From: an uncultured Muribaculaceae bacterium
Lineage (GTDB): Bacteria > Bacillota_I > Bacilli_A > RF39 > UBA660
Length of the DNA: 43,136 nt
Assembly (NCBI GenBank): GCA_964369155.1
Contig: CAYJEI010000002.1
Coordinates: 1 to 43,136, forward strand
Direction of reading: 5' to 3'
In this document: positions 7,397 to 13,020 of the stretch, piece by piece
How positions within the stretch are numbered: position 1 is the stretch's first letter
How the letters are laid out: each line of letters opens with the position of its first letter
The notes under the pieces: generated by a model
What the model was told of the DNA's origin: nothing
Databases searched by the model: none
The model's input: the letters and a program-made list of their open reading frames with translations, nothing else
Program-made: the position numbers and the translations under genes

Positions 7397-8422
7397 ATGG
7401 AAACAACAGAAAAATTAAAAAAATCTATTGAGTATTATGATGAGTTATATAATACTAATAGTTATGATTATAATATCTTTATAACATATATACAATTATT
7501 AAAACTAGATATTAAAAATTATCATTTAATAAAAGAAATTATTGAAGATAGATTTGAAAAATATATGAATAATACTTTAGCTGTTGAAGAAAAAAATATT
7601 TATGTTCAGTTATATAAAAATATATTTTTTATGTATGCAGATGTTTGTTTATCATTAGGTTATTACAGTGAAGCACAAAAAATTCTTCTAGATATAAAGA
7701 AAGTACATAGTAGTGCCAATTATCAACTATTACTTCATTATGTAGAAACACAAAACTATGAAGGATTTTATGAAAATGTACCTAGTAATATAAATAAATT
7801 TACAAGTGCAGTAATAGTAAATTGTGAAAAACAAAGAGGAAATTACAAGGAAGCACTTGACTATTCTACAAAAAATTTTGAAGGAAATGGAAAAAATATT
7901 TTATCTCATTTAGAGCTTTTTATAAAAATGGATGATATGAATAATTTTAAGATAATTTATGATAAATATAAAAAATATTTGTTACATTTTCAAGTATTAG
8001 AATTATATAATTACTATGAAAAAAGAATTAGTGGCTTTTTTGAAAAATATGATTTTGATAAAGGATATTTAAAAGTGAAAAACAAACTTACTAGATTAGG
8101 TTTAGTGCATCCAGAAGTACATTTAAATCAAAATTATGATTTAAAAAACCTTTTTTATGAGTTTGAAAACATTGTAAAAGATAAAAATTTAAGACCATAT
8201 AAAAGTAATACTAAAGACCATTACCATCTTACACATGATGATTTTATTGGAACTGTTATGGGATATCCAACTAAGCATATATGCATAATTACTGAAATGA
8301 ACAAACCAAGCAATATCATAATGATATCACCAACTTTGTCTCATAAATTACTAAAAGTAGATGATGTGGCATATAAATTAGAAAGAGTACTAGATACTAA
8401 ACGTAATAATAAATTTAAATAA
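7397..8422 (+). CDS. Unknown 341-aa soluble protein, helical-repeat (TPR-like) appearance
   Basis: Long ORF with AAGGCGG RBS. Y/N/K-rich helical repeats. I recognise no motif. Confidence 0.7.
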   Translation: METTEKLKKSIEYYDELYNTNSYDYNIFITYIQLLKLDIKNYHLIKEIIEDRFEKYMNNTLAVEEKNIYVQLYKNIFFMYADVCLSLGYYSEAQKILLDIKKVHSSANYQLLLHYVETQNYEGFYENVPSNINKFTSAVIVNCEKQRGNYKEALDYSTKNFEGNGKNILSHLELFIKMDDMNNFKIIYDKYKKYLLHFQVLELYNYYEKRISGFFEKYDFDKGYLKVKNKLTRLGLVHPEVHLNQNYDLKNLFYEFENIVKDKNLRPYKSNTKDHYHLTHDDFIGTVMGYPTKHICIITEMNKPSNIIMISPTLSHKLLKVDDVAYKLERVLDTKRNNKFK

Positions 8423-8424
8423 TT

Positions 8425-8449
8425 AAAGATTTGTAGACAAATCTTTTTT
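8425..8449 (+). terminator. Rho-independent terminator
   Basis: AAAGATTTGT-ag-ACAAATCTTT inverted repeat followed by TTT. Confidence 0.65.
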
Positions 8450-8477
8450 ATTTTGATAAACTTAAAGTGGTGATAAT

Positions 8478-9752
8478 ATGGAATTTGTATGTAGTGATCC
8501 AGGTGTGCTGCAAGGTATATATGCGGTTAAAAGTATTCTTCAAATAGTATTTATAATTGCACCTATAATATTAGTTGTTAGAATTTCAATAGATATATTT
8601 AAAGAAGTTATAAATAATGGTGAAAATCTAGGTAAAACAATAAAGGAATCTTCTATGAGATTTATTGCACTTGCAATAATGTTTTTATTTATTCCACTTT
8701 ATAGTGGTATTTTAGAATTTGCTAGTGTAAATACAGCAGCATATTCTGATTGTTTAAAAAATTCTAATCCAGAAACTATAGCTATTTTAGAGCAATCAAC
8801 TAGTTTGCTTGATGCTATTACAGCAGTTTCTTATGCAGAAAGAAGTTATTCTAAATCAGATTACGATGAAGCAAATTATTTAGTTGAAGGTTTATCAGAT
8901 AGTGATAAAAAAAGTGATTTACAAAAAAGATTACAGAGTGTTTTAATCCAAATAAATAAAATGGCAAATCAAGAAGAGTATTATTGGATAATTCCAAGTA
9001 ATGAAGTATTAAATTCAGTAGGTGAAGTAAGTGCAAGTAAAAGTACTAATACAACGTACGATCCGATGGCATCTGTAATTTATAATGAAGAACTTGGAAA
9101 CCCAGTTAAAGCTAGTAATTTTACATATATGAGTGATGTAAACGGAGATGATTTAGGAGTATGGCCAATAAATTACAATGAAATACCCATGAGTGTAAGT
9201 GTAGAAAAGACTTATCCTGCAAGTACAAGTTATAATGGAAAATCATTTTCAAGCTCTGCAGTAGGGGAATTTATATGGCCACTAAATTTAGAAGAACCTC
9301 AGACTTGGTCTGGAAGTTATGAGCATAACGGAATAGATATCATAGATCATTTTGGTACTCCAATTTATGCTCCAGTAAGTGGAACTTTAATATATTCAGA
9401 GTATGGACATACCAAAAATGATGGAGCAGATGAAAATCCTTACTCAATGAAAATAAAACTTAATGAAACAATAACCATAGATGGAATTAATGTATCATAT
9501 ATATTTTTAACTCATTTTTCAGGATTAATGTATAATTGTGCAGATGAAAGTGATTGCAGCAGAGAAATAAAACAAGGTGAACTTATTGGGTTTACTGGTA
9601 ATGCAGCAGGTAGTGCAGATGAGCTTGGATGGGCTCCTCATCTCCATATGACATTTTGTTCAAGTGTAGCATGTAGCAGCGGAGTAACTACTGCCGATAT
9701 TAAAGATATGTATCAAATAAATGCAGGGGAATCAAGAGGTGCTGGAAAATGA
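8478..9752 (+). CDS. Membrane-anchored M23 family metallopeptidase (LytM/lysostaphin-type domain at the C-terminus)
   Basis: 424 aa. HNGIDI (HxxxD) and APHLHM (HxH) M23 motifs in the C-terminal third. The N-terminal ~85 aa contain two hydrophobic segments. Confidence 0.85.
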   Translation: MEFVCSDPGVLQGIYAVKSILQIVFIIAPIILVVRISIDIFKEVINNGENLGKTIKESSMRFIALAIMFLFIPLYSGILEFASVNTAAYSDCLKNSNPETIAILEQSTSLLDAITAVSYAERSYSKSDYDEANYLVEGLSDSDKKSDLQKRLQSVLIQINKMANQEEYYWIIPSNEVLNSVGEVSASKSTNTTYDPMASVIYNEELGNPVKASNFTYMSDVNGDDLGVWPINYNEIPMSVSVEKTYPASTSYNGKSFSSSAVGEFIWPLNLEEPQTWSGSYEHNGIDIIDHFGTPIYAPVSGTLIYSEYGHTKNDGADENPYSMKIKLNETITIDGINVSYIFLTHFSGLMYNCADESDCSREIKQGELIGFTGNAAGSADELGWAPHLHMTFCSSVACSSGVTTADIKDMYQINAGESRGAGK

Positions 9753-10420
9753 TGAATGATAAGAAAAAATATTTCATAATCATAGGAATATTAATTTCCT
9801 TAGTAGTTATTATATTTATAATAAATGCATTTAGAAAGCAAGATGTTGAGCATCAATTAATAGCAGACCAGGTAGTAGAGTTTTATACTTCTGCGATATA
9901 TGATGATACAGTTTATAATAATGCTGAGAGAAAAGCTTTAGACGATCTTTTATCAACTTTAACTCATCAAAATGAAAAAATAGATTTAAGTAAATATTTA
10001 ATTGAAGAAGATTTGTATAGAACAAGTAAAAGTAATAGTAATTTCGTATTCGAAGAAAATGGTAAATGTTATATATATTATGATGATTTAGTATTTCCGG
10101 AAACTGAAAATCAGTATAACAATGGTTATTCTAACGCTGCTAGTGGCGATAATGCAGCAGTAGTAATATGCAATGGTTATGAGATATATGTTTTTGAAAA
10201 TGATTTTATTCCTTACGAAGAAGTAAAAGATGATGAAAAACACAGTTATCAATATTTAACTAAAACAATTGATTCAACTATTGAAAAGTATTATTATGCT
10301 TCAACTACTGTAAATTATTATATTGAAGTAACTTTCCATATAGATAATAAAGACGTATATAATATTGAAGTAAATGCAATAAATATTGAAGATATACCAG
10401 TTGACGAAAAACATGATTAA
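9749..10420 (+). CDS. Single-pass membrane-anchored protein, unknown function
   Basis: 223-aa ORF overlapping the upstream stop (ATGATGA). TM segment YFIIIGILISLVVIIFIINAF. Confidence 0.75.
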   Translation: MMNDKKKYFIIIGILISLVVIIFIINAFRKQDVEHQLIADQVVEFYTSAIYDDTVYNNAERKALDDLLSTLTHQNEKIDLSKYLIEEDLYRTSKSNSNFVFEENGKCYIYYDDLVFPETENQYNNGYSNAASGDNAAVVICNGYEIYVFENDFIPYEEVKDDEKHSYQYLTKTIDSTIEKYYYASTTVNYYIEVTFHIDNKDVYNIEVNAINIEDIPVDEKHD

Positions 10421-10432
10421 TTCATGTTTTTT
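10407..10432 (+). terminator. Rho-independent terminator overlapping the stop codon
   Basis: AAAACATGA-ttaat-TCATGTTTT followed by TT. Confidence 0.6.
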
Positions 10433-10488
10433 AATTGATAAAATAAAAAAAATATGTTAAGCTGAATATATATTAAGGAGACTAGGTT

Positions 10489-12108: not shown

Positions 12109-12143
12109 ACGAGTATAAATAAATTATTAGTTTAAGATGATTA

Positions 12144-12173
12144 AAACAAGTGATTTTTATTGCTTGTTTTTTT
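12144..12173 (+). terminator. Probable terminator after P2
   Basis: AAACAAG...CTTGTTT stem with a 12-nt loop, then a T-run. Confidence 0.5.
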
Positions 12174-12191
12174 GTTTGAAGTTTGTGTAAT

Positions 12192-12220
12192 TTGACATAT
12201 TGTAATTAATATGATACAAT
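12192..12220 (+). promoter_or_regulatory. Promoter TTGACA-17 nt-(TGa)TACAAT
   Basis: TTGACA at 12192-12197, extended -10 TGATACAAT at 12212-12220. Confidence 0.6.
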
Positions 12221-12247
12221 TATTTGGTTGGTAAAAAAAGGGGAAAA

Positions 12248-12643
12248 ATGAGTATAAAAAAACATATAATAAAATTCGAAAAAATAATTGAAAAAGAAAT
12301 GAAATTAATGAATCTTGATGAAAGCGCTAGTTATACCGACAAGCAAAAAGCAAGAAAGGAAATTATTGAAAAATATTATAAGCATTACTCTAGCATGGGA
12401 AAAATTTCTGGAGAAATTGCCTTAGCAGGAGTTTTAGTAACAACTTGTCTTCTATTTAAATTAATAGGAACAGAGTTAAGTGATAGTGAACTTTATACCA
12501 TGGTAGCTTCAATAGGAGTATCAAATTTATCAGCAATTTCTTTATATAATTATACAGAAAAATCAACGTGTGCAAATATGGAATTGATTTTTGCAAATGA
12601 TTATATCAATAATTTAGAAAATGAAGAAAGAATTAGAAAATAA
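12248..12643 (+). CDS. Small membrane protein (helical N-terminus + two predicted TM segments), unknown function
   Basis: ATG at 12248 follows AAAGGGGA. The track's TTG at 12224 sits at or upstream of the predicted transcription start. Hydrophobic stretches are ISGEIALAGVLVTTCLLFKLI and MVASIGVSNLSAISL. Confidence 0.7.
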   Translation: MSIKKHIIKFEKIIEKEMKLMNLDESASYTDKQKARKEIIEKYYKHYSSMGKISGEIALAGVLVTTCLLFKLIGTELSDSELYTMVASIGVSNLSAISLYNYTEKSTCANMELIFANDYINNLENEERIRK

Positions 12644-12669
12644 AAAACAATTTATAAGGGGGAAATAAA

Positions 12670-13020
12670 ATGTTAAATAATTACAATAATCTATCAATGC
12701 TGGAATTACATAATAAAATAGAGGAATTAATAAAAGAAGAAGAATATTACGATCGTTTTTTAGGTGCTACAGGTGTAGGTGCTATAATTGGTGCAGGCTT
12801 TTTAATAAAAAATTTATGTAATTTATATGGATTAGATCTTAATGAATATACACTTAATATTATTTTAAGAACATATTTATATACTGGTATGATAGGCATA
12901 TCAACGCTGTTTGCAATGAAGTGTGATAAAAAATTAGATAGTGTTGAGCGAGATATAGAAGAAATAGATGAATTAATAAGAATAAAAAAAGCTGATACTA
13001 TAAAAAAATATGGTTTATAA
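12670..13020 (+). CDS. Small membrane protein (helical N-terminus + two predicted TM segments + charged C-terminal helix), unknown function
   Basis: 116 aa with AAGGGGG RBS. Same overall layout as the preceding gene. Confidence 0.7.
   Translation: MLNNYNNLSMLELHNKIEELIKEEEYYDRFLGATGVGAIIGAGFLIKNLCNLYGLDLNEYTLNIILRTYLYTGMIGISTLFAMKCDKKLDSVERDIEEIDELIRIKKADTIKKYGL

Follow-up and report, generated by a model that had tools for sequence, protein, structure and literature searches.

A Likely Membrane-Tethered Wall Hydrolase and Its Co-Translated Partner in an Apparently Mosaic Gene Run of Uncultured Gut Bacilli

Positions 1–43,136 of contig CAYJEI010000002.1 (assembly GCA_964369155.1, deposited as an uncultured Muribaculaceae bacterium), a stretch of 43,136 nucleotides (nt) referred to in the following as the window, contain a run of six consecutive uncharacterized open reading frames (ORFs) at 7397–13020, between a pgsA-like gene and the hrcA promoter. 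All six are present on the plus strand at the coordinates given in a preliminary description of this DNA, which had proposed that they—here termed ORF1, ORF2, ORF3, P2, ORF5, and ORF6—form a single envelope or surface-structure system. Comparison with related genomes leads to a different picture, as adjacency is not conserved for four of the six genes. The run does harbor an undescribed envelope module, but this is a wall-hydrolase module of two genes rather than six and does not serve fibre export. Taken as a whole, the 5.6-kb run is likely a chance juxtaposition, a mosaic of three unrelated pieces: the tail gene of an operon (ORF1), a two-gene cassette (ORF2–ORF3), and a variable accessory slot (P2, ORF5, and ORF6). 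The cassette itself probably specifies a membrane-tethered peptidoglycan hydrolase together with a co-translated extracytoplasmic partner, encoded beside the variable slot.

The ORF2–ORF3 Pair

ORF2 (8478–9752, plus strand; 424 amino acids (aa)) and ORF3 (9749–10420, plus strand; 223 aa) appear to constitute a translationally coupled bicistron, the only evolutionarily conserved unit of the run. Their reading frames overlap by 4 nt and ORF3 carries one anchor, as had been noted before. The comparative set consisted of 31 non-redundant loci with 38 copies of the ORF2 family and flanks of ±10 kb, and was analyzed by tblastn of all window proteins and by ORF clustering; homologues of ORF3 were recovered by tblastn inside the loci fetched through ORF2. 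Across this set, the suggested co-occurrence of the M23 peptidase gene with the 223-aa gene proved near-invariable, an ORF3 homologue being located directly 3′ of the ORF2-family gene in 32 of the 38 copies. Wherever the start call is unambiguous, the intergenic gap measures −8 to +9 nt. Searches for the ORF2 family returned 23 members from 5.8 billion proteins and 28 loci from the GTDB species genomes; a few evidently wrong labels aside, all its sources are uncultured gut metagenome-assembled genomes (MAGs) labelled Bacilli, Mollicutes, or Bacillota. The MAGs behind loci L008, L017, L018, L019, L023, and L029 include some labelled “uncultured Muribaculaceae bacterium” or “Bacteroides helcogenes”, suggesting either mislabelling or contaminated bins.

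The surroundings of the pair fall into four types according to clade: recX upstream with a divergently oriented polysaccharide deacetylase gene and prsA downstream; glmS upstream with glmM ~2.7 kb downstream; ftsK upstream with parE–parC downstream; or, as in the window, pgsA upstream and hrcA downstream. Most genomes carry a single copy of the pair in a housekeeping context. Tandem pairs were found in five MAGs, as doublets in L009, L010, L011, and L026 and as a triplet in L023; with L009 and L011 being ~90% identical, these MAGs represent four species-level lineages. For both genes, first copies cluster with the first copies of other genomes and second copies with second copies, and the cassette has therefore duplicated as a unit. 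The distance matrices of the two families correlate with r = 0.86 (0 of 2000 permutations as high), while mean pairwise identity amounts to 41% for the ORF2 family and 32% for the partner. As a separate observation, the pair in a MAG from the Hadza gut (L032) is directly followed by five tandem paralogous genes of the sigma-70 family, each encoding 393–428 aa (9483–15702).

The earlier assignment of ORF2 as an M23 peptidase with two N-terminal transmembrane (TM) segments is borne out by Pfam, sequence motifs, fold, and two hydrophobic segments alike. The protein is composed of an anchor module, a linker, and an M23/LytM endopeptidase domain at residues ~280–395. Its N-terminal module (N-module) of ~160 aa comprises a two-TM hairpin (residues ~10–28 and 62–80) and a subsequent helical bundle (residues 98–163), and is matched by the family's hidden Markov model (HMM) with E 1e-50. 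The order of elements in the N-module of the family is a short tail with an invariant cysteine, TM1, a basic loop, TM2, a second invariant cysteine, and the helical bundle. Because of the positive-inside rule, the tail and everything past TM2 would be located outside the cell, corresponding to an N-out/C-out hairpin. The M23 family (PF01551) matches residues 282–393 of ORF2 with E 7e-7 and 29.8 bits against a gathering cut-off of 28.7, and is carried by 23 of 23 homologues. Residues H283, D287, H346, H388, and H390, which make up the HxxxD, H, and HxH motifs, do not vary among 18 homologues and are found in most of the 38 copies; cysteines C5, C92, C354, and C360 are likewise invariant in the 18 sequences. 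In Foldseek comparisons, the AlphaFold2 (AF2) model of ORF2 (pLDDT, the model's confidence measure, 73.5) retrieves LytM, StM23, Csd1/2, and lysostaphin at probability 1.0, with TM-scores on the target of up to 0.68 and a sequence identity to solved M23 domains of 15–22%. As judged by these conserved residues, the M23 domain is predicted to be catalytically intact, and ORF2 would be a peptidoglycan endopeptidase with peptidoglycan as its substrate. Exact-protein look-ups of ORF2 and of two proteins of the P family introduced below returned no record.

ORF3 displays one N-terminal hydrophobic segment, which would serve as a single anchor for a ~195-aa extracytoplasmic domain belonging to no known family. 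Many of its homologues contain a lipobox (LTGC), also seen as matches to LPAM_1, and some an extra C-terminal TM segment. Given the lipobox in so many homologues, the partner is taken to be extracytoplasmic. A word-seeded homologue search with ORF3 returned only ORF3 itself.

Variation of the Catalytic Domain

The anchor of ORF2 is also found in front of other C-terminal domains. Second copies at 4255–5286 in L009, 11952–12944 in L010, and 11910–12941 in L011 have kept the N-module (HMM E 1e-43 to 1e-47; 46% identity over 183 aa) and lack every M23 motif. These proteins align to the NlpC/P60 endopeptidase MepS with E 2e-9 and with the catalytic cysteine and histidine in register; for their putative catalytic domain, an NlpC/P60 identity is a strong lead, though short of a curated assignment. 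Three further proteins, one in L026 (11964–13103) and two in L031 (7942–9009 and 12475–13455), join the ORF2 N-module to a third type of C-terminal domain, for which no match was found in phage and plasmid collections. Each of the genes for proteins with an alternative domain in these five loci has a small membrane-tethered partner encoded after it. Two M23 homologues without the N-module, in L030 and L035, have no ORF3-family gene following them. N-module and partner are thus kept despite the catalytic swap, and the partner therefore tracks the anchor module and not the catalytic fold. Based on this co-occurrence with the anchor module, the anchor or helical bundle is the inferred binding site of the partner.

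Proposed Function

In the model considered here, ORF2 would be held in the membrane by its N-out/C-out two-helix hairpin, exposing the helical bundle and a LytM-type zinc endopeptidase to the outside. ORF3, presumably a signal-anchored extracytoplasmic protein in this organism and a lipoprotein in many relatives, would bind the anchor or helical module of ORF2. By doing so, it could position or gate a tethered hydrolase that works on the wall of the cell itself during growth, separation, or other remodelling.

Several points weigh against this model. The Pfam M23 score of ORF2 itself barely exceeds the gathering score. ORF3 has no Pfam or PDB match in sequence and profile searches. Physical interaction of the two proteins and a regulatory role of ORF3 are predictions from sequence comparison, and the mirror-tree correlation between the families largely reflects shared phylogeny. 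At the most divergent loci (L031, L033, and L034) the downstream gene is alike in size and topology, with homology to ORF3 not being demonstrable; the same applies to the c36 and c37 downstream genes. The putative NlpC/P60 domain was recognized by pairwise BLAST against MepS, and the resemblance of the third C-terminal type in L026 and L031 to a cysteine peptidase was noticed by eye only. Finally, the distant locus L034 features a P-family gene after the pair, as does the window, so that a loose association, seen in two cases, may exist.

A more far-reaching proposal, which we consider unlikely, would see in the cassette an undescribed modular wall-hydrolase platform of uncultured gut Bacilli, in which an anchor with a conserved pair of cysteines on its outer side, and a cognate lipoprotein or anchored partner that recognizes it, are combined with exchangeable heads (M23, NlpC/P60, and a third putative cysteine peptidase) and duplicate as a unit. 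In such a platform, the partner may represent a novel type of subunit that gives tethered autolysins their specificity or gates them.

The Other Genes of the Run

ORF1 (7397–8422, plus strand; 341 aa) encodes a cytoplasmic-looking helical protein and lies outside the conserved module. It starts 8 nt after pgsA, both in the window and in the closest relative (GCA_964370755.1, locus L002), and is probably the last gene of the fmt–pgsA unit. The closest relative is also the only fetched locus with a homologue. Neither a TM segment nor a signal peptide is predicted for ORF1, in keeping with the former statement that five of the six gene products are membrane or exported proteins, as the other five show hydrophobic N-termini or segments. 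The designation as a helical-repeat protein derives from a sub-threshold match to TPR_14 (E 0.023). An exhaustive phmmer search of 1.84 billion representative proteins recovered ORF1 itself and one 351-aa protein with 33% identity, that of the closest relative, and sequence and profile searches against PDB yielded no match. ORF1 is a fast-evolving protein restricted to this genus-level lineage.

P2 (10489–12108, plus strand; 539 aa) is an accessory secreted or surface protein from a multi-copy family. Its paralogy, which had been recognized before, extends to P1 (672–2288, 68% identical), to the gene at 40448–41947 (34–44%), and to that at 19948–21213 (weakly similar). These four paralogues thus occupy 43 kb, each alone between housekeeping genes, and share a signal peptide ending in SYAYF or similar, a beta-sandwich, and a C-terminal domain that may resemble DUF6273. 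The family numbers at least 573 homologues, with several copies in these MAGs; a 60%-identical gene of the closest relative resides between trxB and cysS, and other family members adjoin lgt, trxB and cysS, or genes of no assigned function. In the DNA comparison, at least P1 and P2 constitute indels relative to the closest relative. A P-family gene is found directly beside the pair in 2 of the 31 loci only, the window and L034, which does not bear out the proposed co-occurrence; two further loci show weak partial matches 2–4 kb upstream of the pair.

The AF2 model of P2 (pLDDT 88.9) starts with a helix, either signal or anchor, that ends in SYAYF and is followed by ~20 disordered residues, a beta-sandwich at residues 50–205, and a large C-terminal domain at residues 240–539. 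P2 itself has no Pfam match. Among 50 of its relatives, nine match PF12389 (Peptidase_M73), the P0064 match covering profile positions 3–79 of 196 within the first ~80 residues, and six match PF19789 (DUF6273), as does the L034 homologue. Foldseek comparison with BFVD likewise points to phage DUF6273 proteins, at probability 0.99–1.0 but with E-values of 4e-3 to 8e-3. The DUF6273 domain has been described as C-type-lectin-like in phage receptor-binding proteins (PMC10743442). With respect to TasA, hhalign aligned 29 signal-peptide columns only (probability 0.7%), and the best 50 PDB matches of the full-length model in Foldseek include no TasA and consist of generic beta-sandwich noise; sequence and profile searches of PDB gave no match to P2. 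The earlier label “TasA-like” consequently applies to the signal-peptide region and not to the rest of the protein. P2 is neither a TasA homologue nor tied to the hydrolase cassette. Judging from the structural model, it is probably a binding protein of accessory nature, secreted or surface-located, in which a TasA-type signal peptide is combined with a C-type-lectin-like head.

ORF5 (12248–12643, plus strand; 131 aa) has a charged helical N-terminus, a strong hydrophobic segment at residues 57–73, and a weak one. Its best start is the ATG at 12248, which is preceded by a GGGG ribosome-binding site, and the 131-aa product corresponds to the gene call on record. ORF6 (12670–13020, plus strand; 116 aa) contains a Gly-rich strong hydrophobic segment at residues 30–46 and, again, a weak one. 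Both are predicted to be small membrane proteins transcribed from their own promoter to their own terminator. The similar layout ascribed to them does not extend to the sequences, which show no similarity to each other (E 0.52), and with one strong and one weak segment each, neither has the clear two-TM hairpin that had been claimed. Neither the fetched loci nor two JGI metagenome scans, sensitive to close relatives only, contained a relative of ORF5 or ORF6, so that the supposed link of these small genes to the pair is not seen either. For ORF5, phages, PADLOC, and Pfam gave no homologue, the protein is a singleton 90% cluster, and an origin from phage was discarded in view of the missing viral match.

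Between ORF3 and the hrcA promoter there is a variable accessory slot, which P2, ORF5, and ORF6 occupy in the window. In place of these three, the closest relative has genes for a metallophosphoesterase and for a 929-aa protein that lacks a signal peptide. To the right of the slot, window positions 13054–18603 and L002 positions 15699–21261 are 87% identical at the DNA level over hrcA–grpE–dnaK–pepF (HrcA and DnaK proteins 98% and 95% identical, respectively); to the left, DNA identity is 74–76% over frr–fmt–pgsA and 67% over the M23 pair. The switch in identity coincides with the slot and may mark a recombination breakpoint.

Hairpins and promoters are predicted to divide the run into separate transcription units. 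The hairpins previously placed at 8425, 10407, and 12144 were confirmed by folding, and a fourth follows ORF6; a consensus terminator scan, which needs G+C-rich stems, had missed all of the AT-rich ones. All four are stem-loops with a T-run on the plus strand. The AT-rich one at 8425–8446 (−6.8 kcal/mol, z −1.9) likely terminates fmt–pgsA–ORF1, and the one at 10406–10432, which spans the ORF3 stop codon (−10.6 kcal/mol, z −3.5, 0 of 200 shuffles as good), would terminate ORF2–ORF3. Those at 12143–12170 (−11.4 kcal/mol, z −4.7) and 13031–13056 (−7.0 kcal/mol, z −2.8) are assigned to P2 and to ORF5–ORF6, respectively. A promoter-like TTGACA-17-TACAAT sequence with a TG extension (12192–12220, plus strand; 11 of 12 consensus matches) precedes ORF5–ORF6. 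The right boundary of the run is formed by the hrcA promoter (13093–13153, plus strand), a perfect sigma-70 TTGACA-17-TATAAT with a CIRCE-like inverted repeat (TTAGCACT...GAGTGCTAA).

Genomic Setting

The window, with 27% G+C and nearly all genes on the plus strand, represents a housekeeping region of a Bacillota organism with a small genome. Recognizable genes comprise hup, frr, fmt, the pgsA-like gene for a CDP-alcohol phosphatidyltransferase, hrcA–grpE–dnaK, pepF, dnaJ, a gene for a MiaB-like enzyme, sufC/D, recD2, cmk, xerC, ppdK, nusB, xseA, and proS, while Rfam and tRNA scans of the window were empty. About 17 of the 43 larger ORFs have no useful family assignment, and under random placement the chance of encountering six or more uncharacterized genes in a row is p ~0.05. 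A defence island was ruled out as an explanation of the run, the six proteins giving 0 matches to PADLOC models. The same is true for a phage lysis cassette or endolysin: 2.9 million viral contigs contain one partial match to ORF2, confined to the M23 domain, and PHROG matches of ORF2 are limited to that domain as well.

Several features elsewhere in the window deserve mention. Between grpE and dnaK, a 169-aa ORF of unassigned function (14679–15188) overlaps the dnaK start by 8 nt and is kept in the closest relative with 62% identity; the position of pepF between dnaK and dnaJ is an unusual layout for an hrcA–grpE–dnaK–dnaJ operon. A 499-aa Lys/Glu/Asn-rich ORF without a family match (4319–5818) separates frr from fmt and is missing in the closest relative, where the two genes are adjacent and the DNA comparison shows an indel. 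At the 5′ end of the window (1–130), just upstream of hup (HU), a partial ORF encodes a Pro/Gln/Val-rich tandem peptide repeat (AAPIVQPEPV...).

Alternative Explanations

The architecture of the cassette is reminiscent of polymorphic toxin–immunity systems, in which an N-terminal trafficking module would direct exchangeable wall-degrading toxins against competitors and the lipoprotein would protect the producer. A constant N-terminus with a variable C-terminal domain (M23, NlpC/P60, or the third type), tandem arrays of two or three cassettes, a small extracytoplasmic protein encoded immediately downstream, and the fast divergence of both genes (mean identity 41% and 32%) would all suit such a role, and the cassettes may alternatively be contact-dependent wall-degrading weapons with a shared immunity fold. 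A toxin–immunity function is nevertheless improbable. Cassettes whose catalytic folds are unrelated still have homologous partners, which argues against an immunity protein specific for an active site; the enzyme carries a two-TM anchor with no evident release site; no type VII or other secretion genes are present nearby, the FtsK-like neighbour being a genuine FtsK with a gamma domain; and single copies in a housekeeping context prevail. Another mobile system, Gram-positive conjugation by type IV secretion, comes into view with the weak matches of the N-module to models for mycoplasma integrative and conjugative element (ICE) pilin-like proteins, Mbov_0396, and TrbL (E 3e-4 to 2e-2), which span nearly all of the 80-position pilin-like profile. 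The pair would then be a domesticated remnant equivalent to PrgK and the VirB8-like PrgL, and indeed the LytM domain of PrgK is among the Foldseek matches of ORF2, and ORF3 resembles PrgL in size and topology. PrgL, which has ~208 aa and is composed of a TM helix and an ectodomain, binds PrgK, is believed to determine its localisation, and leaves PrgK activity unchanged in vitro (bioRxiv 10.1101/2024.02.15.580431). However, the NCBIfam matches are far below the curated cut-offs and concern 1–3 of 18 members, the flanks are of housekeeping character without VirB4-, VirD4-, or relaxase-like neighbours within ±10 kb in the 31 loci, the M23 site is intact in ORF2 and degenerate in PrgK, the ORF3 profile matches no VirB8-like chain in PDB, and many partners are lipoproteins. 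Large neighbours in one clade had been considered as VirB4/VirD4 candidates and were rejected, as they are FtsK, ParE, and ParC. A descent from a conjugation module is accordingly regarded as quite improbable.

In sporulating B. subtilis, SpoIIQ is a membrane-anchored LytM protein and SpoIIIAH its single-pass partner of ~218 aa, a layout that parallels the combination of an anchored LytM enzyme with a single-pass partner. The closest relative, moreover, has SpoIVA ~6 kb upstream of the syntenic block. This SpoIVA (L002 2902–4380) is full-length, with ATPase, middle, and C-terminal domains, and the low-G+C gut lineage behind the “Bacilli” and “Mollicutes” labels is therefore probably an endospore former. 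It is still very unlikely that the pair forms a sporulation-specific membrane complex of the SpoIIQ–SpoIIIAH kind or an engulfment hydrolase, as NCBIfam and Pfam reveal no match to SpoIIQ, SpoIIIAH, or any other sporulation family, no sporulation genes are adjacent in any clade, SpoIIQ possesses a single TM segment in contrast to the two-TM anchor, and tandem duplication with catalytic swap is unlike a single-copy channel component. Hardly credible is the idea of one envelope or surface-fibre system of six genes, in which the hydrolase would open the wall, P2 would supply a TasA-like fibre subunit, and the small membrane proteins would export and anchor it. The genes are indeed co-oriented and contiguous, five have hydrophobic N-termini or segments, the signal peptide of P2 is of the TasA type (SYAYF), some P2 relatives match Peptidase_M73, the ~20 disordered residues that follow the signal peptide might in principle act as a donor strand, and the distant L034 also has a P-family gene just after the pair; that the P family forms TasA-style donor-strand fibres with lectin heads is a separate and rather unlikely possibility. 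In the closest relative, however, P2, ORF5, and ORF6 are replaced, and no other fetched locus has ORF1; P-family genes are scattered singly among housekeeping genes; and terminators follow ORF1, ORF3, P2, and ORF6. The parallel to tapA–sipW–tasA likewise breaks down, since no window ORF matches a signal-peptidase family and the similarity to TasA is confined to the signal peptide; neither SipW nor TapA was seen beside P-family genes. Because accessory genes such as those of the P family insert singly between housekeeping operons, the contiguity of uncharacterized genes is a poor guide to function in these genomes.

Comparison with Known Systems

A membrane-tethered hydrolase with a dedicated partner, the reading favored here, can be related to several known systems. 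ORF2 shares the HxxxD and HxH zinc motifs and the M23 fold with LytM/M23 endopeptidases (S. aureus LytM, lysostaphin, H. pylori Csd1-3, and V. cholerae ShyA), but differs from them by its two-TM hairpin and helical-bundle module, which is restricted to this MAG lineage, and by the downstream partner gene. PrgK–PrgL of the pCF10 type IV secretion system also combines an anchored LytM-domain hydrolase with a neighbouring ~210-aa protein of TM segment and ectodomain, whereas the cassette has no type IV secretion context, an intact M23 site, and no VirB8-like sequence signal in ORF3. As for P2, its family resembles TasA/camelysin (Peptidase_M73) in the signal peptide, which ends in SYAYF (compare AAF in TasA), and differs from tapA–sipW–tasA by an extra 300-aa C-terminal domain, by the absence of sipW or tapA neighbours, and by genes scattered singly. 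That C-terminal domain may share the fold of the DUF6273 or C-type-lectin-like domains of gut phage proteins (tentaclins and targets of diversity-generating retroelements (DGRs)), although P2 is cellular, chromosomally encoded, and equipped with a signal peptide.

Cell-wall hydrolases must be under tight control, and to our knowledge the modules described for this purpose—FtsEX–EnvC/PcsB/CwlO, LytH–ActH, and NlpI–MepS—come from few cultured models. The clade of uncultured small-genome gut Bacilli would use a different arrangement, with a hairpin anchor of its own, a small tethered partner, and an exchangeable catalytic head. If the partner indeed gates or positions the enzyme, this would amount to a new regulatory logic for autolysins and open a way to study growth and division in organisms not yet amenable to culture. 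In terms of function, the pair can be compared with FtsEX–EnvC/PcsB/CwlO, where a wall hydrolase or activator with a helical region likewise has a dedicated membrane partner, and full-length ORF2 aligns to EnvC of the FtsEX–EnvC complex in Foldseek (E 6e-4). In contrast to FtsEX-type systems, an ABC transporter or polytopic partner is missing here, the anchor is fused to the hydrolase, and the partner is a small lipoprotein or signal-anchored protein. LytH–ActH of S. aureus, which we take to be another hydrolase controlled by a membrane partner, is presumably similar in function only. By sequence, the ORF2–ORF3 cassette thus appears as a modestly interesting variant of partner-associated peptidoglycan hydrolases that is confined to uncultured gut Bacilli.

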